Shown here piece after piece: positions 6,554-61,015 of a stretch of DNA of 64,000 bases. Under the pieces are notes generated by a model. It made no database searches, had not been told where the DNA came from, and worked only from the letters and a program-made list of their open reading frames with translations. This stretch comes from a bacterium. GTDB taxonomy: Bacteria > Desulfobacterota > JAPLJL01. The translations under genes were made by a program, and so were the position numbers. The DNA lies in NCBI GenBank assembly GCA_028713675.1, contig JAQTNV010000001.1, positions 73,879-137,878 on the forward strand, written 5' to 3'. Position 1 is the stretch's first letter, and each line of letters begins with the position of its first letter.

Positions 6554-6593
6554 AAATAAAAAGTCATTTTTCCAAGAATCGGCCCTTTTAAAA

Positions 6594-45869: not shown

Positions 45870-45907
45870 GGACAGGTAGCTCAGTTGGTAGAGCATCGGA
45901 CTGAAAA
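45870..45907 (+). pseudogene. truncated tRNA-Phe(GAA): 5' half only (acceptor 5' strand, D-arm, anticodon stem 5' strand and loop)
   Basis: GGACAGG-TA-GCTCAGTTGGTAGAGC-A-TCGGA-CTGAAAA closely matches the 5' half of bacterial tRNA-Phe. The complementary anticodon-stem strand, T-arm and 3' acceptor are absent downstream. Confidence 0.6.
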
Positions 45908-46350
45908 GGCAATCTGAGCAAAAATCTCATGTCCTTGATATCCCTCAAAAAGCTGGTTTAACCCATTGAAATCATTAATTAATTATTTAATATTATTCCT
46001 TATTATTTTTTATTCGATCTCATCATTTTTTACTATCTCTGCGTCTCCTTTGCGTCTCCCGGTCATGAAAATTTAATGGGAATTTAAATCGATGGAGACA
46101 CTCCCCTCCCCCAGACTTTTATTTAAATAAAGGAAGAACTGGCCCAGCAAGTGGCTCAAGCTCCACTCGACGAGAAATCGAGCAGGAAAATTAGGTATAG
46201 ATTTGGAAATTTAACTTGAAGATTTGTTAGGATGAGGACCGAGTTTTTCAATCCGACTATGCCTCGGGCTTTTACCACCATTCGGGGAGGCCGGGTTTTT
46301 CTTCAGCTGAACCTGGAGGACGAAAGGCGGAGCCGGTAGGCAGGGCGATT

Positions 46351-46686
46351 TCAGAGGATATCGCGGACGAATATTTTCAACTTATGAATCTTTTTCCTTT
46401 CTTTCCCCTTGGCGATTGAAATTACGAGGTCTAGAACCTCCCTACCCTCGGGCGATAGGTTTTCCTTGGAAAAGCATAAGCTGAAAAAATCAGCGGGGGA
46501 GAGTCCCAAGCCCGAAGCAATTTTAATTATGCTCCGGAGCTTCAGGTCCGATTGCGCCCGCTCGATTTCTCCGAGAAATTTCGGATGAATCCCGGCTCGA
46601 TCAGCCAACTCCTCCTGACTTAACCCTCTCGCCTTTCTCAACTCCCGAAGACTGCGTCCGAATTCAGCTGTCTCGCTCTTGCCCAT
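46351..46686 (-). CDS. XRE-family HTH transcriptional regulator
   Basis: LRKARGLSQEELADRAGI HTH_3 motif. Start at the ATG with an AAAGGAG RBS. Confidence 0.8.
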   Translation of the reverse strand: MGKSETAEFGRSLRELRKARGLSQEELADRAGIHPKFLGEIERAQSDLKLRSIIKIASGLGLSPADFFSLCFSKENLSPEGREVLDLVISIAKGKERKKIHKLKIFVRDIL

Positions 46687-46882
46687 AGCGTCTCCTTTTA
46701 AGTCCCAAATTACGCCAGGTCGGGCGAGGATAACCACAATCCAGAGACTACATATCTACTTGAATTAGTAGTCTTACGGTGGTATATAAGACGTATAACA
46801 ACGTCAGAGATTCCCCTGAAGATTTTCCGCAAATGCGGAAAGGGTGAACTTTCCGTGGAGATGAGGCACAGGAGGAGAAAAC

Positions 46883-48094
46883 ATGAAAAGCAAAGCGAAA
46901 TGGTATTTAGGGTTGGCTCTTGGTTTTCTGGCCGGGGTGGTGTTCGTGATCTCCTGCGGGGAGGAGGCGCGGTCCATTGCCCAGGCGGTGATCAAGGCGG
47001 TGGACGTGTCCTTTGACAATTCGGGAACGGACATTGCGGCGACCGACATTCAAGGGCTGGGGACGGAGCTTACGGACCGGATCGCCTCCCTTGAGGGTAT
47101 GGTGACGGAACTGAATAGCTCGGTTCGTGAGTGTTTAGAAAAAGAACCAGCCAGCTATCAGATGCCGGAAAATGAGTGTTTGGAAAAGCAAACAGATATT
47201 TCTAAGGCCCCAGCGAATTGGATAGTCCTCGACAAGCAGACTCGCATCAACGGAAAAGTGATGCTGAATCTACCGTGCACATTATTCCTAAGGTATTTAA
47301 AGATAAATATCACTTATGCCAACGATATGGGCCGGGCTCACATCTATGAGATTCAAGTTTTCGGCCCCGACAATCCATATACAAATCTCGCCTATCGTTT
47401 GGTGGGCACGACGGTAACTGCTATTTCCGGCTCAGCAGCGTATTCAGCAATAGACGGTAATTTTTCGGGGGGATGGATCAGCGATCGAGACAATCCCGGA
47501 TGGGTCAGCGAGGAAGATCCCCATTGGATCATTGTGGACCTTGGACGGAATTACCGAATCGACCGGATCGTAATTGACGCTGGGAATTACTACCAGGACT
47601 ACTTTCTTTTAGGTATGGCCGGGATTCAGATGTCGGAGAATGAGTGTTTGGAGGAGGAGACCCCGGCTGATTGGGTAACCCTCGACGAACAGACACAAGT
47701 AAATGAGACCGTAGCACTAAATCTGACTTGCGCGATGCACCTGCGGTATTTGAAGATCAGCGCAACATATTCAGACGATGCGGGCCAAGTCAATGTTCAT
47801 GAGATTCAAGTGTTTGGCCCGGACACACCGAACACCAATCTCGCCCTGAACAAGACGGTGACTGCCATTTCCTCCCAGGGGGGGAATTCTGGGAACCAAG
47901 GTCCAGGAAGTGCGGTGGATTGGGATTTTTCGAGCAGATGGGCCAGCGAGAGGAATGATCCCGGACCTGCCAGTGTGGAGGTTCCACATTGGATTATGGT
48001 TGATCTCGGACAGAACTTTAGAATTGACAGAATCGTTATCGACCTTGCGGATCACCGCCTGGACTACACCCTGTTGGGAAAGCGGGGTGAGTGA
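46883..48094 (+). CDS. lipoprotein with two discoidin (F5/8 type C)-like domains
   Basis: VISCG lipobox. An internal tandem duplication (IYEIQVFGPDNPYTNLA... / VHEIQVFGPDTPNTNLA...) ends in a discoidin-like beta-sandwich signature (HWI(I/M)VDLG..RIDRIVID). Confidence 0.65.
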   Translation: MKSKAKWYLGLALGFLAGVVFVISCGEEARSIAQAVIKAVDVSFDNSGTDIAATDIQGLGTELTDRIASLEGMVTELNSSVRECLEKEPASYQMPENECLEKQTDISKAPANWIVLDKQTRINGKVMLNLPCTLFLRYLKINITYANDMGRAHIYEIQVFGPDNPYTNLAYRLVGTTVTAISGSAAYSAIDGNFSGGWISDRDNPGWVSEEDPHWIIVDLGRNYRIDRIVIDAGNYYQDYFLLGMAGIQMSENECLEEETPADWVTLDEQTQVNETVALNLTCAMHLRYLKISATYSDDAGQVNVHEIQVFGPDTPNTNLALNKTVTAISSQGGNSGNQGPGSAVDWDFSSRWASERNDPGPASVEVPHWIMVDLGQNFRIDRIVIDLADHRLDYTLLGKRGE

Positions 48095-48188
48095 AACCAT
48101 TTTCCACGAATGTGGAGCGGTAATAGGCCGTCGGTAATTATTAGAAGGGTAGGATCAAAAAGCGATCGGTTAATTTTGGGGGTTACCT

Positions 48189-49196
48189 ATGGATAAAGAT
48201 TATAGACGACTTTTAGAAGATATCGGTATTGCAAAGACCGTTAAGGATGTAAGTGATTTAAAAAAGCAATCGGAAGGATTAGAACGAGGCATAGAAGAGC
48301 TTAACTATAATCAGAGAATTTTAATAGATGAAAATAGGCGGGAGCGAGAGAAAGCAGAAGAACTGGAAATAGAAGAACTTCGTGCAAAAAAAGGTAGTAA
48401 GTTTTTCCATCTTGGAGAAGATTGTTTTGAAAAGAAGAAATGGTCGGAGGCCCTAAACCATTATGAAGTTGCCGCGAGATCCTATCCGCGAGATTGGATT
48501 TTTACCGAGACGAAGGTATTTAGTCAGAAAATGGCACTTTTTCGGATGGCGCAGTGTCTTCTGAATGCAAATAAAATCGATGAGAGCATTCAGATATTAG
48601 AGTCGTTATATGAAAACATCCAAGATTTTGCGGCGGATAAGGATTATTTAAATCTCCAAATTCCAGAAATAAAATCAGAAATGATGATGGCATTTGAAAG
48701 AAAATTAGGTAAGTTATCAAAACAACCTTCTGAAGATTCAGCAATTTTAAATGAAATAAATTTCCTGAAGTATCTTTTATTCCAAATTGATCCGGAAAAA
48801 CATCGCAGCTATGAACCAATTTATTCCAATGTAAAACAAGAAATGGAGAAGGAAAAAGAAGAAAAGAAAAAAGGAGAAGAACAAAGACAGCTTAAAGAAC
48901 AAATCAAAAACCTAAGTGAAAAAAAAGAAGAATTGTTGGCTTACTCAAAATCTGAGTCAGTCGGAGGAATATTGCTCGGTTCTTTTTTTGGGATGGCTGC
49001 CGGGGCTTTCGTAACCTATAGTATGAGAGAAAAGTGGGGAGCATTTTTAAATATCGCTTCTTTTTTTACCATAGTAACCTTGGGAATATTTTTGGGGTGG
49101 CTCGGAGGAAAAAGCAGTCGAGAATACAAGAGAGAAAATTCTAAGATTGATGAGCAAATAAAAGAAATCCAAACCAAACTTTTAAAATATTCATAA
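48189..49196 (+). CDS. coiled-coil protein with C-terminal double TM anchor
   Basis: Long heptad-rich segments and a TPR-like stretch. C-terminal hydrophobic helices GILLGSFFGMAAGAFVTY and FFTIVTLGIFLGWLGG. Confidence 0.65.
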   Translation: MDKDYRRLLEDIGIAKTVKDVSDLKKQSEGLERGIEELNYNQRILIDENRREREKAEELEIEELRAKKGSKFFHLGEDCFEKKKWSEALNHYEVAARSYPRDWIFTETKVFSQKMALFRMAQCLLNANKIDESIQILESLYENIQDFAADKDYLNLQIPEIKSEMMMAFERKLGKLSKQPSEDSAILNEINFLKYLLFQIDPEKHRSYEPIYSNVKQEMEKEKEEKKKGEEQRQLKEQIKNLSEKKEELLAYSKSESVGGILLGSFFGMAAGAFVTYSMREKWGAFLNIASFFTIVTLGIFLGWLGGKSSREYKRENSKIDEQIKEIQTKLLKYS

Positions 49197-50603
49197 ATGG
49201 ATTTCCGCTCCTTACCTCTTTTCAAAGAATACATAAAATTTATCCTTGACCTTCATTCTCTTTTCGAGAAGAGGAGGAAATCAAGAAGTTCAGACGGTCC
49301 TTCGGTCAGTGCCGAGATCGAGGAAAAGATTCAGGCCAAGAAAGCCGAGATCGACAAACTGAATTCAGAAGCCGAACAGTCCGGCTTATTTTTTCCCCTG
49401 GAAAGGCTTTGCAAGGAATACAATCTCAACGATTTGGAGCGGGATATAATCCTTCTCCTTTTCGCACGTAGTTTTTTGGAAGGTGTTACTTATTCCAGCA
49501 CCTCTGGGAAGCAGATTCTCTATTTTCTGATCCCCGATCCGATTGATGTGATGCTTCAGCGTCAGGTGATTATGCCCGAGGGAAAGTTGATGAAGGAAGG
49601 GCTGGTCCATGTATATCGGTTCGCACGTGAAGGTGATCCGTTCCTCGACGGTGGATTTTGCTTGGGTGAACCGGTCTTGTCGTATTTACTCGGAGAGACC
49701 GAAGACCGTGGAGACTGGAAGAATAAAAGAGGGGAAGGGGAACAGGTAGGGTTTTTCCATCGCCATCGAAGACGGGATAGCGGTCCGCTTCTTGAGATTC
49801 GAGAGCCGGGGATAACCTTCACCCAGGTTATCCTCCCGGAAGGCCATCGGGATCGAATTTCCGAGGCGCTAAATCAGCTTGTCCATCAGAACCTTATTTT
49901 TATCGACTGGGGGTTTAAGGAAACTCTCCCGTATGGGAAAGGGGTGACCATACTTTTCTCCGGTCCTCCTGGAACCGGCAAAACAATGACCGCAGCGGCC
50001 TGTGCCGATTTCCTGAGCTTGAAGCTCGGAGTCGTAAGACCTGAGGGAGTGGTGGACCTCTTTGTCGGCGAAACGGAAAAGAATGTCTCGCGGGTATTCC
50101 AGGAAGCCAAAAAGGAAAATTGCCTTTTGTTCTTTGATGAGTGCGATTCCCTTTTTCAGTCCCGATATTCCGGCAGGACGGCAGTTGACCGGATGGAAAG
50201 CCGGTCGGTCAACATCCTCCTGCGGGAGATCGAGCGGAGCTTTGAGGGGGCGGTTATCCTGGCCACAAACCGGGTTTTTGACCTGGACGAAGCCCTGGAA
50301 CGACGAATCTCCCTTAGACTCCAGTTCCCGGTGCCCGATGCAGGGGCCAGAGAGCGGATTTGGCGGGGTTTCTTTCCTGCCCAAGCCCCATTGGACTCCC
50401 AAGTGGATTTTTGGGCTTTAGCGCATGAATATGAGCTTTCTGGGGGGGAAATAAAGAATGCTGTCCTCCGGGCAATCCGGAGGATCGGTTCCCAGTCAGA
50501 GCCAAGGTGCCAGCTAATAACCCAGAATCTTCTTGAGGAAGTTGCCAGGGAGGAACTGGAGTCCCGCTGGAGCCGGGAAGATCGCAAGAGGATTGGGTTT
50601 TAG
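49197..50603 (+). CDS. AAA+ ATPase (classic AAA clade) with unique ~230-aa N-terminal domain
   Basis: Start codon abuts the upstream stop. Walker A GPPGTGKT, Walker B LLFFDECD, sensor-1 ATNR. Confidence 0.85.
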   Translation: MDFRSLPLFKEYIKFILDLHSLFEKRRKSRSSDGPSVSAEIEEKIQAKKAEIDKLNSEAEQSGLFFPLERLCKEYNLNDLERDIILLLFARSFLEGVTYSSTSGKQILYFLIPDPIDVMLQRQVIMPEGKLMKEGLVHVYRFAREGDPFLDGGFCLGEPVLSYLLGETEDRGDWKNKRGEGEQVGFFHRHRRRDSGPLLEIREPGITFTQVILPEGHRDRISEALNQLVHQNLIFIDWGFKETLPYGKGVTILFSGPPGTGKTMTAAACADFLSLKLGVVRPEGVVDLFVGETEKNVSRVFQEAKKENCLLFFDECDSLFQSRYSGRTAVDRMESRSVNILLREIERSFEGAVILATNRVFDLDEALERRISLRLQFPVPDAGARERIWRGFFPAQAPLDSQVDFWALAHEYELSGGEIKNAVLRAIRRIGSQSEPRCQLITQNLLEEVAREELESRWSREDRKRIGF

Positions 50604-50784
50604 CTCCCTGCCGGGTAACCACTGCCCACCTTTTCCACATTCGTGGAAAATAGTCTTTGTATGTTTTACTTGACCATCGGTAGGTATTTTCAGATAATAA
50701 CTCAAGGTCTGAAATTAAAGAGTCTCGAATTAGAAATAATTATAAATTTGATTTAAATTCCATAACGGAAAGGAAGGAGTTCGT

Positions 50785-51900
50785 ATGCGACTGGCAACAT
50801 TTAACGTAGAGAACATGTTCGAGAGAGCCAAAGCTCTGAATCTAGGCTCGTGGACAGAAGGCAAAACCGTTCTTGAGGATTTCAACAGGCTCAACACGTT
50901 GATTCAGGAATCTGTGTATACGGAAGAAATCAAGGCCGAGCTTCTAGATATAATGAAACGTCATAAGGGTTTGATAAAGGACGGCAATAGCGAGTTTCTA
51001 CGTCTTCGCGACGTTCGCGGAAAGTTTCTTTATCGCCCGAAGAACGGGCCAGTTGAAATCGGTGCTGGGGGCAGAAACGACTGGATTGGTTGGTTCGATC
51101 TGGAACGTGAGCCGGTCAAGGAGACAGCCACTGAAAATACTGCCCGGATCATTGGGATGTTGAACGCTGATATATTATGCGTTGTCGAGGCGGAAGATCG
51201 AATCGGTTTAAAGCGCTTCAATGATGCTGTAATCCAAAAAGTTGGTGCAAATTCATTTGGCTCCGTAATGCTGATTGATGGAAACGACGACCGAGGCATC
51301 GATGTCGGAATCATGGTTCGTAGTGAATTCGAGATAGCTCTTATGAAAAGCCACGTTGACGATAAGGACACCAAAGGAACTATTTTTAGCCGTGATTGCG
51401 CTGAATATGAAGTGAAGACCGCACAAGGAAATAAGCTCCTTCTTCTTATCAATCATTTCAAATCAAAAGGTTACGGGCGTTCTGATGAATCGGCTGCGAA
51501 GCGGCTACGGCAGGCAACTAGAGTCCGCCAAATTTATGATGAGCGTATTGCCGAAGGATATAAATACATTGCAATTGCCGGTGATCTAAACGAGATGCCT
51601 GATGAATCACCTATGGACCCGCTCTTGCGCAAAGGTTCCGATTTGACAGACATCATGACGCACCCAAAGTTTATTGGAGATGGACGACCTGGAACGCATG
51701 GCAATGGGACCAAGTCAGCAAAACTCGATTATATTCTTATGTCTCCAAAACTCTCCGAAAAGGTGACGAATGGAGGTTTAGAACGAAGGGGTGTCTGGGG
51801 TGGCAAAAATGGTACGCTCTTTCCGCATATCCCAACCATAGAGATGGAGATGGATGCAGCGTCCGATCATGCAGCGCTGTGGGCTGAAATCGATGTTTAA
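50785..51900 (+). CDS. endonuclease/exonuclease/phosphatase (EEP) family protein
   Basis: MRLATFNVEN start, ADILCVVEAED, C-terminal SDHAALWAEIDV. Confidence 0.82.
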   Translation: MRLATFNVENMFERAKALNLGSWTEGKTVLEDFNRLNTLIQESVYTEEIKAELLDIMKRHKGLIKDGNSEFLRLRDVRGKFLYRPKNGPVEIGAGGRNDWIGWFDLEREPVKETATENTARIIGMLNADILCVVEAEDRIGLKRFNDAVIQKVGANSFGSVMLIDGNDDRGIDVGIMVRSEFEIALMKSHVDDKDTKGTIFSRDCAEYEVKTAQGNKLLLLINHFKSKGYGRSDESAAKRLRQATRVRQIYDERIAEGYKYIAIAGDLNEMPDESPMDPLLRKGSDLTDIMTHPKFIGDGRPGTHGNGTKSAKLDYILMSPKLSEKVTNGGLERRGVWGGKNGTLFPHIPTIEMEMDAASDHAALWAEIDV

Positions 51901-52018
51901 AGCAATGTCATTATTGAACACTATGGAAAGGACTTTTCCCTGCCTGCTGGTCTTTACCTGTTCTCATCATGGCGGCGTTTGTGGGAGTCAAGATTAATTT
52001 TTTAAGGAGGAATATTTT

Positions 52019-52207
52019 ATGAATTTCAAATCAATTATTAAAGTTTTATTCGTTCTTATTTTTTTAACGATTTTCTTTTTTAACTGTGGTTTAGAAGAAG
52101 ATGATAATAAGGCTCCCTGTTGTGATGGAACTACAAGTCCAAGTTGTTATTGTGATGGAGACTTACAAGGGTGTTGTTCTCATCATGGTGGTGTTTGTGG
52201 ATGCTAA
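52019..52207 (+). CDS. small Cys-rich secreted (lipo)peptide, 62 aa
   Basis: AGGAGG RBS. Signal peptide ends in FFNCG. The mature part CCDGTTSPSCYCDGDLQGCCSHHGGVCGC has 9 Cys. A decayed copy of the C-terminus lies at 51924..51998. Confidence 0.5.
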   Translation: MNFKSIIKVLFVLIFLTIFFFNCGLEEDDNKAPCCDGTTSPSCYCDGDLQGCCSHHGGVCGC

Positions 52208-52232
52208 TCTACAAATATATTAAGGAAGAAAA

Positions 52233-52895
52233 ATGAGGAAGAAATCTTTAATCATTGGCCTTTGCGGTTTTTTCGCAGGAATAGCTTTTGTAATCCAGTG
52301 TGGGAACGATGCAAAATCTATAGCAGGCAAGATTGCCACTGCCCTGGATATTTCCTTTGATAATTCTGGGACTAACCTTGCATCCCAAAATGTTCAGGAC
52401 GCTATCTCAGAGATATCCTCGAATATTGATAAATTAAGTGTAAAAAAATCGCTTTATATTAAAGATGGAGATGGAAATTTACTTGGTATTTTTATTCAAA
52501 GACTTTATGGCGGTAGTTATGAATATTTTTCTATTGAAAATAATTCTTTAATGGAAATTAATAGTTTTGATGGCTCTTTATGTTCAGATTTAAGGTCTAT
52601 TCCAGCAATATATTTTATGGAAAATGATTGTGTAGGAAATGCATATTCAAATATAAGTGACATGTGGTCTGGAAAAGATAAAATATTTTGTGGTCCTAAT
52701 AATTCTTTTTACAAAATAAGTAGTGTTTTACTCAAAAACACAAAAGTCATAAGTATGAAAACGGTTGACTCCATTACCAAACAAATTACTTGTAGTAATA
52801 ACCCTTACAATTTCAATATAGATATAGCAAAACTTGAACAAATAACCTTGCCAAAGATACAATATACTCTTCCCATAACGATTGAAGCTAGATAG
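52233..52895 (+). CDS. lipoprotein, N-terminal module paralogous to 46883 product
   Basis: VIQCG lipobox. N-terminal ~60 aa are similar to the discoidin lipoprotein N-terminus (SIAxxIxxAxDxSFDNSGT). Confidence 0.6.
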   Translation: MRKKSLIIGLCGFFAGIAFVIQCGNDAKSIAGKIATALDISFDNSGTNLASQNVQDAISEISSNIDKLSVKKSLYIKDGDGNLLGIFIQRLYGGSYEYFSIENNSLMEINSFDGSLCSDLRSIPAIYFMENDCVGNAYSNISDMWSGKDKIFCGPNNSFYKISSVLLKNTKVISMKTVDSITKQITCSNNPYNFNIDIAKLEQITLPKIQYTLPITIEAR

Positions 52896-52898
52896 ATA

Positions 52899-53624
52899 TT
52901 GAATCCGAAACGGTATATCTTTTTCTTTTTATTCCTACTCTTACTATTATCTCCTTCAGTCTTCTCCTTTCCCCTCTCCCCAGTCTTCCGTGTCGTTGAC
53001 GGTGATACTATTGTCGTAAATTACCAAGGCCAGAAAGAAAAAGTCCGCCTAATCGGTGTAGATACCCCCGAAACCGTCGATCCTCGGCGTCCAGTCCAAT
53101 ATTTCGGGAAAGAGGCATCGAACTTCACTAAAAGGATGCTCACCGGCAAGCAGGTTCGTCTGGAATTCGACCAGAATAAACGGGATAAATACGGTCGGCT
53201 TCTGGCCTATATTCATCTCTCCTTGGCCCAGGCGAAGGATGCACCTGACTGCATGGTAAAATCTGGTCCTGCTGAGTTCGATTTCGATGCTTCCCTGATT
53301 TCCTGCGGTTATGGCCACGCTTATACCCGTTTTCCCTTCGCCAGGATGGATAAATACCGGGACTTGGAACGGCAGGCCCGGTTTTCTAATAGGGGACTAT
53401 GGGCCGGAGGGAATAGCTATGAGAAATTATTCGACAAAGCTGGGGAAAAGGGGATATCTGCCAAGCAGGAAGGGTATTTCGTCGCCAGTAGGAATTCAGA
53501 TAAGTTCCATAGACCCGACTGCAAATGGGCGATGAAGATCAGCGATAGGAACCTGATAAAGTTCAAGACAAGAGAAGAGGCGATAAAGGCAGGGCTTAAG
53601 CCGTGTGGGGTCTGTAGGCCATGA
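52899..53624 (+). CDS. secreted thermonuclease (SNase-like) with C-terminal Ada-type zinc-binding domain
   Basis: VVDGDTI...VRLIGVDTPE SNase motifs. C-terminal FHRPDC...FKTREEAIKAGLKPCGVCRP resembles the Ada metal-binding domain. Confidence 0.8.
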   Translation: MNPKRYIFFFLFLLLLLSPSVFSFPLSPVFRVVDGDTIVVNYQGQKEKVRLIGVDTPETVDPRRPVQYFGKEASNFTKRMLTGKQVRLEFDQNKRDKYGRLLAYIHLSLAQAKDAPDCMVKSGPAEFDFDASLISCGYGHAYTRFPFARMDKYRDLERQARFSNRGLWAGGNSYEKLFDKAGEKGISAKQEGYFVASRNSDKFHRPDCKWAMKISDRNLIKFKTREEAIKAGLKPCGVCRP

Positions 53625-54505
53625 AAAAAATTAGAAATAAAATAAAATTAAACATGCCTAAAGATCTGGAAATTCTCATTTCCGAAAAATCTACATTGAA
53701 TAGACAATTTTTTCGACTCGCTGATGAAGCTGGTGATCCTCAGCAATTAGTATCTGAACTATTTGATATTCTGCCAAATAAAATAAAAGAAGCACCAGCT
53801 TTTTTATTAATAACTGGGAAATGGCATTATGATTATGGTATTCCGTATATAAATCTACCCGAAAATACGAATGTGATTGGGACCCCACAATGGCCAGAGG
53901 TAAAAATCCTTTATCAATCCTTAAAAATAGCTCATACGTATTTAACGCATCAGCAATTTGATGTGTTTGTTCAAAGGTTGATAGATCCGGCAAAACACAA
54001 TGATGTATTGTTTGAAATGAGGCCACTGTTATATATCACAAAATCTTTTTGCCCAATATACGAAGTTTCCGGGTATGGTTCGGGTAATAAAACTATTGAT
54101 TGGTTAATAAAGCCAGCTTCTCCGCCATTCTTTTTAACTGAAGTAAAAAATCGTGAGAAAAGCATGATCAAATTTCTTCATGATGTCACTCCTAAACTTA
54201 ATCGTGGAGAAGATTTCATTATTCCCCCCAAACCTGATCCTGGTGATCTTTTCAAGAGCACATTAGAAAAATTCAAATCAAGAATAGACAGCTCATGGTT
54301 ACAAGGCGTATGGGTCCAAACACAAATTATTGAAGATAGATCATCCGTCATTCAATATTTTAACAAAATTGATCATACTATATTGCAGTTTTTAATTATT
54401 TCTAAATGGGGAAAAGATGCTTTTGTTTTAACACGGACAGAGCAACAGAAACGTCAATTGATAGATTTTTTTGAAATTAATGAGTCAACTTTATTGGATT
54501 ACTGA
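53621..54505 (+). CDS. hypothetical protein (294 aa), translationally coupled to the nuclease gene
   Basis: ATGA overlap with the upstream stop. AT-rich. No family recognised. Confidence 0.55.
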   Translation: MKKIRNKIKLNMPKDLEILISEKSTLNRQFFRLADEAGDPQQLVSELFDILPNKIKEAPAFLLITGKWHYDYGIPYINLPENTNVIGTPQWPEVKILYQSLKIAHTYLTHQQFDVFVQRLIDPAKHNDVLFEMRPLLYITKSFCPIYEVSGYGSGNKTIDWLIKPASPPFFLTEVKNREKSMIKFLHDVTPKLNRGEDFIIPPKPDPGDLFKSTLEKFKSRIDSSWLQGVWVQTQIIEDRSSVIQYFNKIDHTILQFLIISKWGKDAFVLTRTEQQKRQLIDFFEINESTLLDY

Positions 54506-54539
54506 AATTGAAGAATCCCATAATTCCAAAACTAATTAA

Positions 54540-56885
54540 TCAATTGATCTGACGAACGCACCGAAACCCGAGGTTGTCGCCCCGATACGCCCAGCGGGTG
54601 CTGCCTCGACCCGAAGCGCGCAGAGAGCCGGTGCCGTAGTTCCAACTGCCACCACGAATGACACGGGACGACCCCGATGAAGGCCCTTGTGGGTTCCGGG
54701 ACGGGCTTTTACCGTAATATCCCGAATCATACCAATCACTCACCCACTCCCAAACATTTCCTGCCATATCCATCACCCCATAAGGACTCGCCCCTTTAGG
54801 TTTAGAGCCAACCGGCCAAGTGGAATCCTTCCCGCACCCATTACCGCCATAACCTATCACCATATAATCGCAATTTGCCGTCTCATTTCCCCAGGGATAT
54901 TTACGGCCATCCGTTCCCCGCGCGGCCTTCTCCCACTCTGCCTCCGTCGGCAATCGCTTCCCCGCCCATTCGCAATAATTATTGGCGTCGTGCCAATCCA
55001 CACAATTCACCGGGTGATTCCCCCGATCTGAATACCCCCAGTTGCAATACTGGTTGTCGCTTTTGGATTTCGGTGCATCGCACTTCAAGGTATTCACGCA
55101 TTTCTGGTATTCCGCCACCGTCACTTCGTATTTATCAATGTAATATGCATCCAGGGTTACCTGATGATAGGGTTTCCCATCGTCACCGCATTGATTATCA
55201 ACCGAGGAATTGCATCCCATCATGAATTCACCGGTAGGAATATACGCCATATCAGGATATTTTTTCTTAGCCACTTCCTCCGCAACCTTCTCTTCCTTTT
55301 TCCTTACTACCTCCTCCGATTCTTCCAGTTTGATCGTCACCGAGGCCATTTTTTGGTCTTCAATTAGTGCGGTTTTATTTCCCTCTTTGTCTTTGGTTTT
55401 CACTATTATCTCATGGTTTCCCACCGGGATACCGGTAAGCGTAAGCGGGGCGCTTCCTTTTTTTATCCCATCAATAAAAACCTTCGCCCCTGGTTCTGGC
55501 GGGTCGGTAAAAATGCTCAGGGAACCCACCATTTGAACCAATTTCCCTTGCTCTCGCGTGATCGCTACCTGCTTTCCACTGGCAATAGAAAGCTTGAACG
55601 ACTTGGTATGGTAACCATCCATCCTCAAAGAAAGCTCATATTGCCCCGGCGAGAGTTCAATCGATACCGGCGTCTTTGTTTGGAGATCTACAATATGAGC
55701 TACTTCTCCATTTTCATTAACAATTTTTACAGGCACCATCGGGAAGACTTGTGTCTTGCCCTGATCGGTATTGTTGACGAATACCTCCGCTCCGGCAGGA
55801 TCGGACTCTAATGAAACCGTCCCGAAATTGGGAGACAGCGGATAGTTCTTTATAGTCTTCTTTTCGTCTTCCACCAAAACCACCTGATTCTTGATCGGAT
55901 CATAAAGATCGAGAGAAACCGAGACCAGGCACTCTCCCGATCTCATCCGCTCGTTCCGGTATGGGGTAGTCCCCACCTGCGTGCCCCCGATCTCCACCTT
56001 TGCCCCTGGCGGTTCCGAGACAATCTCTAGGGTTCCGAAATTGGGCTTGAGCTTTAGGCCTTCATATTTGGTTACCCCCGGCTTCAAATTCACGGGAAAA
56101 ACCAAGGGATGAAAATCCGATTTTTGCAGGGTGACCTGGACAACCTTGCCCGGCTCCAGGTCGGTCTTCTGGAAGGCTGGTTCGGTGTTCCCCGTCTTGA
56201 GATTCCCGAGGTAAACATCCGCACCCGAAGGACTGGTCGTAATATAAAGACCGGCGGGACCCGATGCTGCGGTAACTACCTGGGTAGGATTAACCTCGGT
56301 GATTCCCCCTTCTGCCGGGCCTGAAGGAACTAACCCCGGAGAAACGAACCCTGGACCCACCCCAGATTCCTTACCTTCCTTCCGACCTGATAATTTCCTC
56401 CCCAAAATATGGGCTGCTTTCTGCAAATCACCGGCCTGGCACAAGCAGCTCTCGATCTTGGTTTGGTCCACGAAATAAAGAACTGTATTGGGTTTTCGCT
56501 TATAAAGCTTCGCCGAGAATGCACATTTTTCTCCCGCCTTACTGACCTCTGCTTTTACAAATAAATCCGCATCCAGCTCAGCGGCAAGATCAGCCAAGCA
56601 CTCTGGTCCATCGCAAGATTTCTGGCTTTTTTCCTGGATTTGTTTGAAATAATAATAAAGCGTATCCCGGTCAACCAGATTGTAATTACCAGCATCGGCA
56701 AATTCAGCAGTAAGCGCATCGGTCAGAACCCCTTCCTGGATCGGCTTGGGGGTAAGACCTTTCAAATCCACCTCGAAGATAACCAATACCTCTTTTTTCT
56801 GGGCGAGGAGAGCTGGAGCCAGGAGTGCAAGTAGAGCACAGGTTAGGATCAGTTTTTGCATGGTTAGGTTAGCCCGCATTTTCAC
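54540..56885 (-). CDS. secreted PEGA-repeat protein with C-terminal formylglycine-generating-enzyme (FGE/SUMF1-like) domain
   Basis: Signal peptide, several PEGA-like repeats, and C-terminal FGE motifs (YHQVTLDAYYIDKYEVT, RLPTEAEWEKAARG, RGGSW). The start codon is uncertain (GTG at 56885 or ATG at 56879/56861). Confidence 0.8.
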   Translation of the reverse strand: MKMRANLTMQKLILTCALLALLAPALLAQKKEVLVIFEVDLKGLTPKPIQEGVLTDALTAEFADAGNYNLVDRDTLYYYFKQIQEKSQKSCDGPECLADLAAELDADLFVKAEVSKAGEKCAFSAKLYKRKPNTVLYFVDQTKIESCLCQAGDLQKAAHILGRKLSGRKEGKESGVGPGFVSPGLVPSGPAEGGITEVNPTQVVTAASGPAGLYITTSPSGADVYLGNLKTGNTEPAFQKTDLEPGKVVQVTLQKSDFHPLVFPVNLKPGVTKYEGLKLKPNFGTLEIVSEPPGAKVEIGGTQVGTTPYRNERMRSGECLVSVSLDLYDPIKNQVVLVEDEKKTIKNYPLSPNFGTVSLESDPAGAEVFVNNTDQGKTQVFPMVPVKIVNENGEVAHIVDLQTKTPVSIELSPGQYELSLRMDGYHTKSFKLSIASGKQVAITREQGKLVQMVGSLSIFTDPPEPGAKVFIDGIKKGSAPLTLTGIPVGNHEIIVKTKDKEGNKTALIEDQKMASVTIKLEESEEVVRKKEEKVAEEVAKKKYPDMAYIPTGEFMMGCNSSVDNQCGDDGKPYHQVTLDAYYIDKYEVTVAEYQKCVNTLKCDAPKSKSDNQYCNWGYSDRGNHPVNCVDWHDANNYCEWAGKRLPTEAEWEKAARGTDGRKYPWGNETANCDYMVIGYGGNGCGKDSTWPVGSKPKGASPYGVMDMAGNVWEWVSDWYDSGYYGKSPSRNPQGPSSGSSRVIRGGSWNYGTGSLRASGRGSTRWAYRGDNLGFRCVRQIN

Positions 56886-57111
56886 TGGTCTTTTTTATTG
56901 ACTTGATCCACCCAGCATAGAACATACTCCAGTTATGGTCGGGATCGTCCTTCGAGGCGGACATCCTGACCGACTGGGACCTCTCGTTGTAATCGGTAAG
57001 GTAGCCCAGGGCGTCGAGGTCGCCGTGCTTTAGGATATAGACCCGCTGGCCTCGGTATTCCCGAAGTTTCGCTTTTATTACATCTGGGACCTTGTCGGGT
57101 ATCTGGATCAT
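56869..57111 (-). CDS. hypothetical small protein (80 aa)
   Basis: Overlaps both flanking minus-strand genes (4 nt upstream, 17 nt downstream). Confidence 0.4.
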   Translation of the reverse strand: MIQIPDKVPDVIKAKLREYRGQRVYILKHGDLDALGYLTDYNERSQSVRMSASKDDPDHNWSMFYAGWIKSIKKTSENAG

Positions 57112-57326
57112 TTTGCTTTTTTTCTTTTTACCTCATTCAGCAATTCATTCGCCCTTTTATCCAGTTCCTTGGCATCGATCAGGCCCTTTTCCATCATCTG
57201 CTCAAGAGCCGCTTTAAACGGGATCAGGGCAAGGACCACTTGATTATGGTTCTTGGTTAATTCCTCAACGGATTCTTCGAGTTTTTTAATACGGGTTAGA
57301 GTGTCTTTGAAATCTTTTTCAGTCAT
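57108..57326 (-). CDS. hypothetical small coiled-coil protein (72 aa)
   Basis: ORF with a 4-nt overlap to the 80-aa ORF. Confidence 0.4.
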   Translation of the reverse strand: MTEKDFKDTLTRIKKLEESVEELTKNHNQVVLALIPFKAALEQMMEKGLIDAKELDKRANELLNEVKRKKAK

Positions 57327-57421
57327 CTAATCTTTCTAAGCAGAGTCCTGCCATGTGAGCATAGGTAGCTACCTGACCGATGGTTTCAATAAGTTAAACA
57401 AACCTTCTATTTAATTACTTT

Positions 57422-58153
57422 TTACCTTGAAGGGGGGATGGTAAACATACGTCTGGCTTCAATGTTTTCCTTAAATACTTTATTAATGTGTTTCTCTAAT
57501 TCTTCTTCATATTTTTTTGCTCGTTCTTCTTCGACTTGCGGTGAAGGCTTTTCTGGTTTTGAAGGATTACCGACATCGTCATTATAAACATAGTAGACTT
57601 CAATTCTCTTATTTTTTTTGTCAATTATTTCAGTGGGCGTAAAAGTGTATTCTTTTCTAATTTCTTCAAAATTTATTATTGAATCATGAAAGCTCTTGGA
57701 GACCAGAAGATGATTTTCATCCCCTGTATCCATTATCCTTTGTGTGTTGTTGATAGCGTTTCCTGCAATATTTTCTTTGCCATTAATATCAGAATAAATA
57801 CATCCAGGTCCATTATGTAAGCCCACACGAATTCTAATGCATGATCTCTTTACAATTATCAATAAAAGCACGGCAAAATTGAAAGCTGTATGTTCATTAT
57901 TAAAACACAAGACTACACCATCGCCAGTAGGAAATTCTGTAACAATATCCTTATGTTTTCTCTTAATATAAGATAGGGTAGAAGTTAATCTTGTTATAAC
58001 ATACCATGCCTTTTCATTAGGAAGAAAACTATAACTGACAATATCAATAAAAAGATAGGAATAGGAGGCCTTTTTATATCTTCCTTCCTTGTATACGTCG
58101 ATTAATTGGGATTCCTTTTCTTTTTCTTCTTCTATTTCCGCTAAATATTTCAT
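57422..58153 (-). CDS. standalone class III nucleotidyl cyclase domain protein
   Basis: LFIDIVSYS (metal Asp 1), PTGDGVVLCF (Asp 2), IRVGLHNGPG, GNAINNTQRIMDTGD. These match adenylate/guanylate (or pyrimidine) cyclase catalytic motifs. 243 aa with no sensor domain. Confidence 0.7.
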   Translation of the reverse strand: MKYLAEIEEEKEKESQLIDVYKEGRYKKASYSYLFIDIVSYSFLPNEKAWYVITRLTSTLSYIKRKHKDIVTEFPTGDGVVLCFNNEHTAFNFAVLLLIIVKRSCIRIRVGLHNGPGCIYSDINGKENIAGNAINNTQRIMDTGDENHLLVSKSFHDSIINFEEIRKEYTFTPTEIIDKKNKRIEVYYVYNDDVGNPSKPEKPSPQVEEERAKKYEEELEKHINKVFKENIEARRMFTIPPSR

Positions 58154-58197
58154 GTTTTCTCCAAAATGTTGCTTAAAAGAACAGACCTTCGACTCTA

Positions 58198-58548
58198 TTA
58201 CTTCTCGGAAATAATTCTGGCTATCCTCAGAACCTTCTCTAATTGGTCGAGATCAAGGTTCTTCAGCACCTTTTCGATCTTGGCTATCTGGGTTTCCTTG
58301 GCTTCCTCTTCCTTCGACCCTGTCTTTGGAGGAATCAAATCTAATAGTTCGAGGAGATCAACTTTCAGGGCATCGGCTATTCTGTTCAGGACATCGATGC
58401 TCGGGTTCTTTTCCGCCCGCTCGATCTCGCCGACATATTTATAGGAAAGATCCGACAGGTCTCCCAGTTGCTGCTGGGTCAGGTTCCTCTCCCGTCGGGT
58501 GGATCTTAACTTTTCTCCGAGTCCTTTGATTAAAATCTGCTTGTCCAT
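58198..58548 (-). CDS. XRE-family HTH regulator
   Basis: RRERNLTQQQLGDLSDLS...IERAEKNPS HTH_3. Confidence 0.8.
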   Translation of the reverse strand: MDKQILIKGLGEKLRSTRRERNLTQQQLGDLSDLSYKYVGEIERAEKNPSIDVLNRIADALKVDLLELLDLIPPKTGSKEEEAKETQIAKIEKVLKNLDLDQLEKVLRIARIISEK

Positions 58549-58626
58549 TTGATTTTTATATAACCAATTATATGATAGGAAAAACCTAGGTCAAGAAAAA
58601 TAAGCTGTGCATAGGATTTAAGAAAT

Positions 58627-58977
58627 ATGAACAAGGACATATATCTCAAATTCGGACGACGGCTCAAATCATTGCGGAAAGAAACTGGTTTGAGTCAGAG
58701 AGAACTTGCCCAGCGAGCTAACCTATCCACTAACTATCTTGCTTTACTGGAAACAGGCAATCGTTCTCCGTCATTCAAGACCATTACGGTATTGGCTAAA
58801 GTTCTGCAAGTGCCGATCAGCGTGCTAATGGATTTAGAAGTTCAGGAAAAAGTGGAAAAGAAAAAAGGTAGGAAAACCTTGGATTATCGAGAGCGAATGA
58901 TGCGCTTTCTTTTTGCCAAGAGCGACGCCAAGGTAAAACTTGCCTATGAGGTTCTCCGCAAAATTTTACAAGAGTAA
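58627..58977 (+). CDS. XRE-family HTH regulator (divergent from 58198..58548)
   Basis: RKETGLSQRELAQRANLSTNYLALLETGNRSPS HTH_3. Confidence 0.8.
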   Translation: MNKDIYLKFGRRLKSLRKETGLSQRELAQRANLSTNYLALLETGNRSPSFKTITVLAKVLQVPISVLMDLEVQEKVEKKKGRKTLDYRERMMRFLFAKSDAKVKLAYEVLRKILQE

Positions 58978-59201
58978 CCGAGGAATACCCGACCGGCTGG
59001 TCGGAAGTCACATTATGTGACTTTTACTCCACAAATGTGGAAAGTGATCTTCATCATATTTTATTGGGCCTCGAAATTGGAAAGGATCAGATAGAAAAGC
59101 CGGTCTATGCGCTTGGGTTATAGCCCAATCTCCTCTTTATTAGACAAGATTTATAGCTGGTGATATTCTGCATTCATACGGTGAAAAATAGGGAGCAAGA
59201 A

Positions 59202-60965
59202 ATGAACCTCATTTCCAGAAAATGGTGGCTGGTTATTGTTCCAATTTGCATATTTGGTTCAGGTTGGGCTTGTGGAGGAGGTAATGGAAATTCTTCAGAA
59301 TCATCGCTGACTGCCCCTTCAAATCTCCAGGCAATGGTGATTTCTTCAATCCAGATCAACCTTACCTGGACCGATAATTCCGATAACGAGGATGGGTTCA
59401 AGATTGAGCGGAGGACCGGCACGGGGGGCATTTATGACGTGGTCTCAACCCCTTCCGCCAACATAACAAGCTGGGATGACAGCGGCTTAATTCAAGGCAC
59501 CACTTATTACTATAGAATTCGCGCATATATCTCTGATAAGGATTCAGAATATTCCGACGAGGTTAGTGCAACTACTAGCAATACTTCTGCGATAATTCCC
59601 GTTATCCCAGCCGCCCCCTCTGGTCTGACCGCAACGGTGATTTCTTCAACTCAAATCAATCTTACCTGGAAGGATAATTCCACCAACGAGAATGGCTTTG
59701 TGATCGAGAGGAAAACAGGGCTATCGGGAACATATGCTCAGGCTGCGACGGTCGGAGTCAATGTTACCTCTTACTCAGATACGGGTCTTTCGGCAGGGAC
59801 CACTTATTACTATCGGGTTTATTCCTACAATTCGACCGGGAACTCAAGTTATTCTATCGAGGTGAGCGCGACTCCAATGTCTATCCGCGATTCCTGGATA
59901 CCCACCAGCACCGGGACAAATGTGCCTTCAGGAAGGCATAGCCATACTGCTGTTTGGACAGGGACCGAGATGATTGTCTGGGGTGGTAGTGAATTTAACT
60001 CTGGCTCCATCAACACTGGAGGTAGATATAATCCCTCCACCGATTCTTGGACAACCACCAGCACCGGAGTAAACGTGCCTTCAGGAAGGTCTATCCATAC
60101 CGCAGTCTGGACAGGGTCTGAAATGATCATCTGGGGTGGGAGTGGTAGTATTGCTTCTGGTTCTCTTTATCTTAATACCGGGGGTAAATATAATCCGTCC
60201 ACCGATGCCTGGACCGCCACCAGCACCGGGACAAATGTGCCTGAAGGAAGGTATTACCATGTTGCCGTTTGGACAGGGACTGAAATGGTCGTCTGGGGTG
60301 GTTATGGCGGTGCTTACTTTTTCACCACCGGGGGTAGGTATAATCCGTCCACCGATTCCTGGACTGCCACCAGCACCGGGACAAATGTGCCTTTAGTAAG
60401 GGATTTATATACTACCGTTTGGACAGGGACGGAAATGATCATCTGGGGCGGGACATCAGGTGACTCTACTGGTGGTAAGTATGATCCCTCCACTGATTCC
60501 TGGACAGACACCAGCACCGGCGCGAATGTGCCTGCAGGAAGGAATCGCCATACCGCAGTCTGGACAGGAACCGAAATGATCATCTGGGGTGGGTGGGGTA
60601 TTATTGGATTTAACACCTACGGGGCGCTCAACACCGGGGGTAGATATAATCCGTCAACCGATTCCTGGACCGCCACCAGCACCGGGAACTATGTGCCTAC
60701 AGGAAGAGTTTGGGATGATTATCCCCCTGCCGTTTGGACAGGGACTGAAATGATCATCTGGGGTGGTCATGACGGTTCTAAAATTTTCAACACCGGGGGT
60801 AAATATAATCCGTCCACCAATTCCTGGACAGACACCAGCACCGGGCCAAATGTGCCTTCAGCAAGATATTCATATTCTACAGTTTGGACAGGGACGGAAA
60901 TGATCATCTGGGGTGGTTATGGCGGTCCTGATATTTTTAACACCGGGGGGAAATATACACCTTGA
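59202..60965 (+). CDS. lipoprotein with two fibronectin-III domains and ~11 Kelch-like beta-propeller repeats
   Basis: Start at the ATG with a GGGAGCAAG RBS. Lipobox WACGG. FN3 pair (PSNLQAMVISSIQINLTWTDNSDNEDGFKIERR... x2), then an HTAVWTGTEMIIWGG repeat about every 45 aa. Confidence 0.78.
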   Translation: MNLISRKWWLVIVPICIFGSGWACGGGNGNSSESSLTAPSNLQAMVISSIQINLTWTDNSDNEDGFKIERRTGTGGIYDVVSTPSANITSWDDSGLIQGTTYYYRIRAYISDKDSEYSDEVSATTSNTSAIIPVIPAAPSGLTATVISSTQINLTWKDNSTNENGFVIERKTGLSGTYAQAATVGVNVTSYSDTGLSAGTTYYYRVYSYNSTGNSSYSIEVSATPMSIRDSWIPTSTGTNVPSGRHSHTAVWTGTEMIVWGGSEFNSGSINTGGRYNPSTDSWTTTSTGVNVPSGRSIHTAVWTGSEMIIWGGSGSIASGSLYLNTGGKYNPSTDAWTATSTGTNVPEGRYYHVAVWTGTEMVVWGGYGGAYFFTTGGRYNPSTDSWTATSTGTNVPLVRDLYTTVWTGTEMIIWGGTSGDSTGGKYDPSTDSWTDTSTGANVPAGRNRHTAVWTGTEMIIWGGWGIIGFNTYGALNTGGRYNPSTDSWTATSTGNYVPTGRVWDDYPPAVWTGTEMIIWGGHDGSKIFNTGGKYNPSTNSWTDTSTGPNVPSARYSYSTVWTGTEMIIWGGYGGPDIFNTGGKYTP

Positions 60966-61015
60966 CGGGTTTCTGCAAATACGTTGAATCAACCTCCGGG
61001 AAAATCAGAGCTAAT

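Follow-up and report, generated by a model that had tools for sequence, protein, structure and literature searches.

The closest named relative of the ATPase described here belongs to IetAS (Gao_Iet), which consists of two genes in mobile or island DNA, encoding the classic AAA+ ATPase IetA and a second protein, IetS. IetS has been described as a protease toxin with IetA as its antitoxin, and a system with a mutated ietA could not be built, which the authors regard as support for active IetA serving as the antitoxin (PMC13069673). A further point of reference is provided by LapB-FtsH and alpha-SNAP/Sec17-NSF/Sec18, in which a helical-repeat adaptor is combined with a classic AAA+ machine, LapB being membrane-anchored. 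Within a window of 64,000 nucleotides from a Desulfobacterota bacterium (assembly GCA_028713675.1, contig JAQTNV010000001.1, positions 73,879 to 137,878 of the forward strand), we have analyzed three adjacent genes, the first two of which resemble both arrangements:

48189-49196, + strand: g1, 335-aa ORF, predicted inner-membrane protein
49197-50603, + strand: g2, 468-aa ORF, classic-clade AAA+ ATPase
50785-51900, + strand: g3, 371-aa ORF, EEP-fold hydrolase, predicted Mg-dependent phosphodiesterase

All three open reading frames are present at these positions on the plus strand, as reported in the initial annotation. The start codon of g2 (ATG from 49197) comes immediately after the stop codon of g1 (TAA, 49194-49196), and g3 begins after a gap of 181 nt, in agreement with the abutting junction and the spacing of about 180 bp noted earlier. 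The neighbors are likewise as described, i.e. an F5/8-type-C lipoprotein, a secreted SNase and a second lipoprotein. The proposed island setting fits, with the GC content falling from about 0.55-0.6 to 0.38-0.49 past roughly 46 kb, and by its composition the region stands out as a foreign island. The following element, positioned where the GC content drops, may mark the island edge:

45870-45935, + strand: degenerate tRNA-like fragment (Rfam tRNA 25 bits, gathering score 29)

The 5' half of this fragment resembles tRNA-Phe GAA, and ARAGORN finds no tRNA at 45870-45935. On balance, we favor a locus made up of two units placed side by side, g1-g2 and g3, within a low-GC island acquired horizontally and mosaic in make-up, and not one system. 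The reading that we consider best, with modest confidence, is that g1-g2 form an operon in which a TPR membrane adaptor is encoded together with an AAA+ unfoldase, with g3 encoding an unrelated neighboring hydrolase.

The earlier domain calls are mostly right, and the identification of g2 (GC 0.51, GC3 0.57) as a classic AAA+ ATPase holds. The protein scores 93.8 bits against PF00004 (gathering score 21.2), falls within the classic clade and carries the complete motif set, with Walker A (GPPGTGKT, 256), a pore loop (FVG, 289), Walker B (LLFFDE, 310), sensor-1 (TN, 357) and RR (369), so that the AAA module is catalytically intact as judged by motifs. The best PDB sequence matches are Cdc48/p97 D2 domains (1.7e-34). 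An N-terminal helix is followed by a winged-helix domain (29-168), a single AAA module (252-378) with lid and a conserved C-terminal KRIGF. The N-terminal domain had been called unique; it is, however, the WHD variant PF22977 (44.5 bits, cut-off 27), which is also found in nearly all of the 120 best g2 homologues listed. With the WHD-AAA family (PF22977 plus PF00004), g2 shares the N-terminal winged helix, an AAA module of 30-47% identity and a C-terminal (K/R)-hydrophobic-G-F motif, whereas the family members, from Myxococcota and Deltaproteobacteria, mostly comprise ~730 aa with two AAA domains, as compared to the 468 aa and single module of g2. The double-AAA relatives inspected have no g1-like partner, and their contexts are nondescript. 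A match to phrog_3757 (1.7e-44) and 27 relatives on viral contigs were also detected.

The absence of a match to any named system, as claimed previously, is supported by comparison to PADLOC-DB v2 at the HMM level, which returns nothing for g1 and g3 and, for g2, a partial IetA/TRIP13 match confined to the AAA module. IetA is the best named family for this module (PADLOC PDLC02196, 2.9e-34), and the NCBIfam IteA model reaches 111.8 bits on g2, ahead of PAN, Cdc48 and FtsH, with the next family at 75.8 bits. Assignment of g2 as IetA itself was rejected, as the 111.8 bits compare to a cut-off of 510 for this equivalog (NF042959) and cover residues 198-429 only. The overall IetA likeness is limited to the AAA module (198-452), and g2 has an extra N-terminal region of ~200 aa, formed by the helix and the WHD. 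Assignment of the locus as IetAS was rejected as well, the ATPase being below the equivalog cut-off and the adjacent S8 protease gene being absent; no peptidase domain was found among the neighbors scanned between 46.3 and 61.6 kb. The partners also differ, IetS being a subtilase while g1 is a TPR/TM protein encoded upstream of the ATPase.

Further relatives of g2 are coupled to yet other genes. In three metagenome loci (L108, L113 and L106), a PDDEXK_4 nuclease gene resembling the PADLOC candidate PDC-S26 lies immediately after the AAA gene, the two genes overlapping by 4 nt in L108 and L113. Their AAA modules are 39-46% identical to g2 over the ATPase and are likewise coupled to a second gene, in L108 and L113 translationally; however, the PD-(D/E)xK partner is located downstream and the N-terminal regions are longer (~650 aa in total), whereas no PD-(D/E)xK gene adjoins g2. 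These pairings show that the ATPase clade of g2 is reused with exchangeable partners. In L088, a relative 43% identical to g2 adjoins a DUF433-PIN toxin-antitoxin pair and type I hsdM/hsdS, and its gene is solitary, without g1 upstream; hence, close AAA relatives can stand alone. The relative closest in sequence among those discussed here, P0001 (92% identical), has an fn3/FGE-sulfatase gene 4 nt upstream and a 261-aa non-EEP gene downstream. The short upstream gap suggests that expression as the second of two paired genes is the rule for the ATPase. We note that the effectors in the wider AAA family, IetS and PDDEXK_4, are encoded downstream of the ATPase, in the slot that g3 occupies here.

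The third gene, g3, has an EEP fold, as confirmed by Foldseek matches to EEP structures (E 1e-10) and by scores of 44.6 bits against PF03372 (cut-off 27) and 36.4 bits against PF19580 (cut-off 24.5). The catalytic set is complete (N7/E9, E135, N223/H224, D267/N269, D315, D361/H362) and is invariant or nearly so across 32 homologues. Both fold and catalytic set are thus those of the EEP superfamily, from which g3 differs by an insertion of ~100 residues after the first strand. The nearest solved folds are TDP2, EEPD1, neutral sphingomyelinase and CNOT6L, at 14-20% identity, and DNA-repair, RNA, lipid and sugar-phosphate enzymes are found among the structural neighbors. The fold in the original designation as an EEP nuclease is therefore correct, whereas nuclease is a family-level guess, as the nearest folds are generic EEP enzymes. 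Assignment as an ExeM/NucH extracellular endonuclease was rejected (40.7 bits, NCBIfam cut-off 300; no N-terminal hydrophobic segment or signal peptide). Members of the g3 family, 48-78% identical, range from Proteobacteria to Nitrososphaerales archaea and have a standard length of 371 aa, to which g3 conforms, leaving no extra docking or adaptor domain.

The three genes had been proposed to form one undescribed, lineage-specific anti-phage system, in which the anchored ATPase would control an EEP nuclease effector. This we regard as very improbable. The genes are close together on one strand in an island, the AAA module is IetA-like, and the PDDEXK_4 effector genes directly downstream in L108 and L113 make the downstream slot plausible for an effector. 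However, the recurrence check, named with the original proposal as one that could refute it, does not bring the genes together elsewhere. No homologue of g1, g2 or another window neighbor lies within 6 kb on either side of the EEP gene in 80 genome loci, and no conserved neighbor is present there, the largest neighbor family occurring in 7 of the 80. Conversely, neither g1 nor the EEP gene is found at any of 111 loci of g2 relatives (80 metagenomic, 27 viral and 4 other), and in P0001 the downstream position is taken by the non-EEP gene mentioned above. The absence of co-occurrence argues against a recurring three-gene defense system and largely refutes the model. The family-standard length of g3, lacking an added adaptor domain, and the GC3 values, which differ gene by gene (0.31, 0.57 and 0.46 for g1, g2 and g3), point in the same direction, as does the architecture of the spacer in front of g3. 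The relevant elements are:

48100-48116, + strand: palindrome TTTTCCACGAATGTGGA, 73 nt upstream of the g1 start
50631-50650, + strand: inverted copy of the palindrome, 28 nt after the g2 stop, between g2 and g3
50670-50698, + strand: sigma-70-like promoter match (TTGACC, 17 nt, GATAAT; 10/12 positions), upstream of g3

The palindrome, TCCRC-N4-GYGGA, occurs in five intergenic copies between 46.8 and 61.6 kb (0.25 expected by chance) and nowhere else in the window. The copy upstream of g1 may serve as an operator or form a hairpin, and the presence of one palindrome type before both g1 and g3 could mean shared regulation, a point in favor of a three-gene system. The copy at 50631-50650 forms a hairpin of 8 bp with a U-rich tract behind it and is thus terminator-like, and the fold energy of 50604-50670 is -15.5 kcal/mol (z = -2.45). 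The promoter-like site is a consensus match only, sigma-70-like matches in the region being no more numerous than in shuffled sequence. In addition, g3 has its own strong Shine-Dalgarno sequence, AAGGAG. A 181-nt spacer with hairpin, promoter-like site and separate Shine-Dalgarno sequence stands against a joint system, and we lean towards g3 being an independently expressed stand-alone gene of a widespread, strongly conserved family, and a chance neighbor of g1-g2 without a functional tie to them.

The description of g1 (GC 0.35, GC3 0.31) as a coiled-coil membrane protein is borne out, although a TPR-like domain had been missed. The protein has charged helical regions, and its AF2 model is all-helical (pLDDT 83.8). 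In this prediction, residues 3-81 form a long N-terminal helix and residues from about 85 to 200 a TPR-like helical-repeat domain, after which a long helix (206-278) runs into TM1, followed by TM2 and a short C-terminal helix. The hydrophobic segments at 257-276 and 283-307 form a 2-TM hairpin, and, since a signal peptide is absent, a cytoplasmic location is predicted for the soluble N- and C-terminal parts. TPR models of Pfam are approached (TPR_6, 26.2 bits with a cut-off of 26.3; TPR_2, 25.3 with 27), and the helical-repeat core is matched best in Foldseek by 3-TPR domains that bind peptides, those of Sgt2, Hop and SGT; these are weak matches (E ~3e-3, target-normalized TM 0.48-0.66 for the Sgt2/Hop domains). 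LapB and Sec17 are also among the matches; here the likeness is one of logic only, with weak Foldseek values (E 3e-3 to 2e-2) and no sequence homology.

As to the junction of g1 and g2, Shine-Dalgarno sequences precede g1 and g3, and none precedes g2, so that expression of g2 depends on g1. In L171, an independent 682-bp metagenome contig from a close relative, g1 and the AAA gene are joined in this way too, with TAA followed at once by GTG; nucleotide identity to the source locus is 90.7% in g1 and only 65% at the start of the AAA gene. Although the AAA side has diverged by 35%, both lineages have thus retained a junction with zero spacer. Two in-frame stops at the extreme 5' end of the contig indicate that g1 of L171 may not be intact. 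Beyond the source organism, the pairing occurs in L171 alone, and we are inclined to view g1-g2 as a tightly and translationally coupled, lineage-restricted bicistronic operon shared by very close relatives only.

Alternatively, cassette-like recombination, in an island that is hypervariable, may have produced the junction incidentally, with g1 and g2 co-transcribed and functionally unrelated. GC3 steps from 0.31 to 0.57 exactly at the junction, in L171 a conserved g1 is followed by an exchanged AAA allele, and in P0001 a conserved AAA gene has an exchanged gene in front; together, these observations speak for recent, repeated recombination exactly at this position, which weakens the case for g1 and g2 as co-evolved partners. 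Neither family has a stable partner elsewhere, and a second abutting pair in the island, SNase/orf294, is discordant in GC3, too (0.54 and 0.25). Retention of the zero-spacer junction across the diverged AAA alleles, the dependence of g2 on g1 for expression and the spacing of only 4 nt to the upstream gene in P0001 argue against a mere by-product, which we consider improbable.

A toxin-antitoxin or abortive-infection pair is also conceivable, if unlikely, by analogy to IetAS. The 2-TM protein g1 would then be a membrane-damaging toxin and g2 its antitoxin; equally tentatively, g2 would continuously unfold or extract g1, and loss of the ATPase on infection would free g1 and lead to depolarization. 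The role of IetA, the nearest named relative of the g2 module, as an antitoxin (PMC13069673) is in agreement with such a scheme, as are the small hairpin of g1 and the translational coupling, which fixes the g1/g2 stoichiometry. Members of the g1 family are moreover found in mobile contexts, with a type IIG R-M gene and an integrase in L168, a Mu-like prophage protease in L172, and toxin-antitoxin genes and a transposase near the members at the P0245 loci. However, no AAA neighbor is present at the L003, L168, L172 and P0245 loci, and a family that mostly lacks an AAA gene is not expected of a toxin that needs this antitoxin. The TM hairpin is furthermore replaced by a soluble TerB-containing region in some members of the g1 family, and AAA relatives without g1 exist (P0001, L088).

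Finally, g1-g2 could be a housekeeping pair for membrane-protein quality control in the style of FtsH-LapB or Msp1, as might be implied by a classic AAA+ ATPase paired with a TPR membrane adaptor and by the presence of LapB among the structural matches. This appears even less probable than the three-gene system, because the g1 family has only 7 matches among 1.84 billion (1.84e9) representatives, the pair lies in the low-GC island and not in the core genome, and it is missing from essentially all other genomes. The IetA-like module, together with relatives located beside type I R-M, toxin-antitoxin and PD-(D/E)xK genes, makes a mobile-element or conflict module likelier than a housekeeping one, and a defense or toxin-antitoxin role of g1-g2 is possible.

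Returning to the adaptor-unfoldase operon that we favor, we propose the following mechanism. The cytoplasmic coiled coil and 3-TPR domain of g1 would most likely act as a membrane-tethered adaptor, with g2, an active and presumably hexameric unfoldase, being held at the membrane by g1. Using ATP, g2 would then unfold, extract or disassemble a protein client at the membrane. The gene structures, domains, intact catalytic motifs, junction, missing co-occurrence and mosaic composition are observed, whereas it is inferred that g1 binds g2, how g1 is placed in the membrane, that the unfoldase has a client there and that the pair has any part in conflict. The scheme is similar to LapB-FtsH and Sec17-NSF in that a helical-repeat adaptor would serve a classic AAA+ machine, and to LapB in the predicted membrane anchoring of the adaptor.

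A bolder interpretation, to which we give little weight, is that g1-g2 represent an undescribed two-gene conflict module, with the junction as a cassette recombination joint and the EEP gene at most co-regulated. If so, an IetA-like WHD AAA+ unfoldase would gate, or be recruited by, a rare TPR/2-TM protein, and the pair would function in abortive infection or in a toxin-antitoxin-like manner. The stop/start junction would then allow ATPase alleles and partner genes to be swapped as cassettes, and g3 would be co-regulated via the palindrome shared across the island.

The three open reading frames listed below, proposed in the initial annotation as a defence module with an EEP nuclease as its effector, are all present as described, on the forward strand.

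Genes of the proposed module
48189-49196, forward strand: g1, 335-aa ORF, coiled-coil/TPR-like membrane protein with two transmembrane segments
49197-50603, forward strand: g2, 468-aa ORF, AAA+ ATPase
50785-51900, forward strand: g3, 371-aa ORF, EEP-fold hydrolase

The abutting g1/g2 junction is likewise borne out, with the TAA of g1 directly before the ATG of g2 ('TCATAAATGGAT') and no purine-rich ribosome-binding site before g2; GGGGG precedes g1, and the Shine-Dalgarno sequence AAGGAG precedes g3. The g2-g3 spacer of 181 nt contains an 8-bp hairpin (UUUUCCAC/GUGGAAAA) with a U-rich tract behind it, a sigma-70-like match (TTGACC-17-GATAAT) and the g3 Shine-Dalgarno sequence. Judged from the junction, the ribosome-binding sites and the spacer features, i.e. 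from sequence alone, g1 and g2 look like a single unit with coupled translation, and g3 looks separate.

The three-gene module with a nuclease effector is refuted, because the genes do not co-occur. Within 6 kb on either side of g3 homologues at 80 species-level genome loci, tblastn detected nothing related to g1, to g2 or to the other genes around them in the window, and none of the loci of g2 relatives (80 metagenomic, 27 on viral contigs and 4 others) contains g1 or this EEP gene. The three-gene set is not a recurring unit, and g3 is better viewed as an independent neighbour. The accompanying view that no named system is represented holds, as PADLOC, NCBIfam, PHROG and Pfam scans of the three proteins and their neighbours returned only IetA and TRIP13 matches; these lie at the level of the AAA module, and assignment to a known system was rejected on that ground.

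By sequence and structure, g3 is a bona fide EEP-fold enzyme with all catalytic residues conserved. The fold assignment therefore stands, but the label nuclease is an assumption, since the closest solved structures (TDP2, EEPD1, neutral sphingomyelinase and CNOT6L, at 14-20% identity) are generic EEP enzymes and the protein has no signal peptide; a PDB sequence search with g3 yielded nothing useful. The family is remarkably conserved, with 65-78% identity among the top 120 matches and 48-63% in Acidobacteriota, Actinomycetota, Planctomycetota and Nitrososphaerales archaea; few of its members come from plasmids, and phage records have none. Members at the EEP-family loci L006-L085 are almost always of ~371 aa and lack a signal peptide. 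All-against-all clustering of the flanking ORFs at 80 loci revealed no conserved neighbour, the largest flank family occurring at 7 of the 80, within related Alphaproteobacteria.

The g2 ATPase carries PF22977, a WHD variant, at residues 29-168 and PF00004 at 252-378, with intact Walker A, Walker B, FVG pore loop, sensor 1 and arginine pair, and its best solved relative is the D2 module of Cdc48/p97. Its N-domain had been considered unique, a description that fails because nearly all of the best 120 homologues listed carry PF22977; a literature search on this domain turned up nothing, and a PDB sequence search with the N-domain gave nothing useful. IetA, described in PMC13069673 as the antitoxin that counters the protease toxin IetS in a system for plasmid stability and anti-phage defence, is the closest named family to the ATPase module (PADLOC, 2.9e-34). 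However, g2 scores 111.8 bits against a cut-off of 510 for the NCBIfam IetA equivalog and no S8 protease gene lies nearby, and it is for these reasons not assigned as IetA. A link to the MoxR-vWA/FGS-domain conflict systems, considered in view of the recurring FGE-sulfatase genes, is kept as an observation only: FGS domains are described there in vWA-MoxR, iSTAND and GTPase systems and not with the AAA family of g2 (Kaur et al. 2020).

The gene of the closest relative of g2, P0001 (92% identity), begins 4 nt behind an fn3/FGE-sulfatase gene, and a 261-aa gene with no Pfam match comes next. The next relatives, at 43-45% identity, are solitary, and at one locus (L088) a g2 relative adjoins a DUF433-PIN toxin-antitoxin pair and type I hsdM/hsdS. 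Other distant relatives adjoin WYL regulators (L090, L092), and at three loci more distant relatives are directly followed by PDDEXK_4/PDC-S26-like nuclease genes.

AAA+/PDDEXK_4 gene pairs, the PDDEXK_4 gene matching the PADLOC candidate PDC-S26
4849-7904 of locus L108: genes overlapping by 4 nt
4717-7955 of locus L113: genes overlapping by 4 nt
35-2016 of locus L106

These pairs may constitute an ATPase-nuclease two-gene system. The g2-type ATPase module is also common in phage and plasmid DNA. A separate feature of the family is a conserved C-terminal (K/R)-hydrophobic-Gly-Phe motif, present at the g2 C-terminus (window 50589-50603) and in P0001-P0011; single-module proteins end in it as KRIGF-COOH, whereas ~730-aa relatives have RIGF, KIGF or KFGF close to their C-terminus, and it is reminiscent of the IGF docking loop of ClpX. 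For these ~730-aa double-AAA relatives, an eCIS/Pvc15-type role was dropped, as the two long contigs inspected hold no tail-like genes.

The g1 protein has hydrophobic segments at residues 257-276 and 283-307, no signal peptide, and TPR matches just under threshold (TPR_6, 26.2 versus 26.3 bits). An AF2 model calculated with seven family members as input (pLDDT 83.8) places a first long helix at 3-81 and a helical-repeat core at 85-200; a second long helix then leads into TM1 and is followed by TM2 and a C-terminal helix. In Foldseek it best matches peptide-binding 3-TPR domains, those of Sgt2, Hop and SGT (E ~3e-3), with LapB and Sec17 likewise among the matches. The family is very small, with 7 matches when HMMER was run over all 1.84 billion representatives and 2, g1 itself included, in a word-indexed search; no relatives were found in viral contigs. 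Where context exists (L003, L168, the P0245 loci and L172), no AAA neighbour lies beside the other family members, and the gene that follows the g1 homologue at L003 was rejected as a diverged AAA N-terminus by both BLASTP and hhalign. The L168 member adjoins a type IIG restriction-modification gene and an integrase, and those of the P0245 loci lie beside FGE-sulfatase, toxin-antitoxin and transposase genes. In P0245 and P0246 (L172, 1827-4031), the g1 N-terminal module, recognized by RRLLED...AKT, a coiled coil and TPR-like character, is fused to a soluble TerB-containing C-terminal region that replaces the TM hairpin; at L172 this fusion adjoins a Mu-like prophage protease.

The g1-g2 pair is nonetheless a real operon in this lineage. 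The one recurrence of the pair lies in L171, a 682-bp metagenome contig from another sample, which carries the C-terminal half of g1, a TAA, an immediate GTG start and the WHD-AAA N-terminus. Compared with the window at the nucleotide level, its g1 part is 90.7% identical but its AAA part only 65.2%, and a conserved g1 is therefore joined here to a diverged ATPase allele; P0001 represents the converse, a nearly identical ATPase behind a different upstream gene. GC3 amounts to 0.31 in g1, 0.57 in g2 and 0.46 in g3, and L171 repeats the GC step between g1 and the AAA gene. These comparisons of sequence and composition point to repeated recombination exactly at the g1/g2 junction, and the two proteins may be merely co-expressed.

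On the most economical reading, g1 would be a membrane-tethered TPR adaptor and g2 an active classic-clade AAA+ unfoldase that acts on a membrane client. TPR-like adaptors serve AAA+ machines, as LapB does with FtsH and Sec17 with Sec18, and the likeness of g1-g2 to these systems is one of resemblance only. A conflict or toxin-antitoxin-type role appears more likely than housekeeping, because the ATPase module is closest to IetA, because distant relatives adjoin PDDEXK_4/PDC-S26-like nuclease genes or WYL regulators, and because phage and plasmid DNA commonly carries the module. g2 is a new addition to the WHD-AAA/IetA-like ATPases, and its partner is rare and lineage-specific.

The placement of a coupled g1-g2 pair inside an island is supported. 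GC drops where the region starts, at a tRNA-like fragment, and the low-GC region has five copies, all intergenic, of the palindrome TCCRC-N4-GYGGA (core TTCCAC-N4-GTGGAA), where chance predicts 0.25; the other 49 kb have none.

Features of the island and its edge
45870-45935: degenerate tRNA-like fragment, 5' half resembling tRNA-Phe(GAA), Rfam 25 bits, under the gathering score
46826, 48103, 50634, 59028 and 61588: palindrome copies
46351-46737, 58198-58548 and 58627-58977: XRE-type regulator genes

ARAGORN reported no tRNA at the fragment and no matching 3' half exists in the window; an intact tRNA or att repeat bounding the island was rejected, only the degenerate 5' fragment having been found. 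Two palindrome copies flank g1-g2 in inverted orientation and several lie upstream of gene starts or beside XRE-type regulator genes, and the palindromes may be shared operators or weak terminators. Across 46351-61570, GC forms a gene-by-gene mosaic in which ~50% GC genes (HTH, F5/8C, AAA, SNase, FGE-sulfatase, Kelch) alternate with 31-35% GC genes (g1, a 62-aa Cys-rich peptide, a 220-aa lipoprotein, orf294 and a 243-aa ORF). Strongly discordant GC3 marks two pairs of abutting or overlapping genes, namely g1/AAA (0.31/0.57) and SNase/orf294 (0.54/0.25).

The latter pair (52899-54505) comprises a secreted SNase, which ends in an Ada-like zinc-binding domain and matches the PADLOC candidate C3a212 over its SNase part, and the low-GC orf294 (294 aa, no family match), the two genes overlapping by 4 nt; they may represent a nuclease with an immunity-like partner. 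The F5/8-type-C lipoprotein (46883-48094) and the 220-aa lipoprotein (52233-52895) share a 68-aa N-terminal module with a lipobox plus 'D-x-SFDNSGT' (44% identity, E = 3e-16). Secreted PEGA/FGE-sulfatase-domain proteins of C-type-lectin fold recur beside the P0001 AAA gene, beside the g1-like gene of P0245 and at 54540-56885 (reverse strand) in the window; for the last, a DGR target was considered, and no template-repeat copy was found within 44-64 kb. Finally, 61697-64000 contains at least 7 tandem 213-nt repeats (73-89% identical) encoding ~71-aa units with a zinc-ribbon-like pattern (WW-C ... HEW ... GCPYC), in an ORF that extends past the window end (64000).

In conclusion, an anchor, an ATPase and nuclease domains side by side can pass for a defence operon; in comparative context, the nuclease-like gene is unrelated, widespread and stand-alone, and the ATPase swaps partners. 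Three modest leads emerge: a 371-aa EEP family that spans bacterial phyla and ammonia-oxidising archaea at about 50-78% identity with no conserved neighbours, a very rare g1 N-terminal module that lies in mobile settings and in some cases carries a TerB fusion, and a WHD-AAA+ ATPase with one AAA module, from the IetA-like clade, whose gene takes the distal position in two-gene operons of varying composition. Should such operons prove to be conflict systems, swapping partners at a constant stop/start joint would be an interesting route to diversification.
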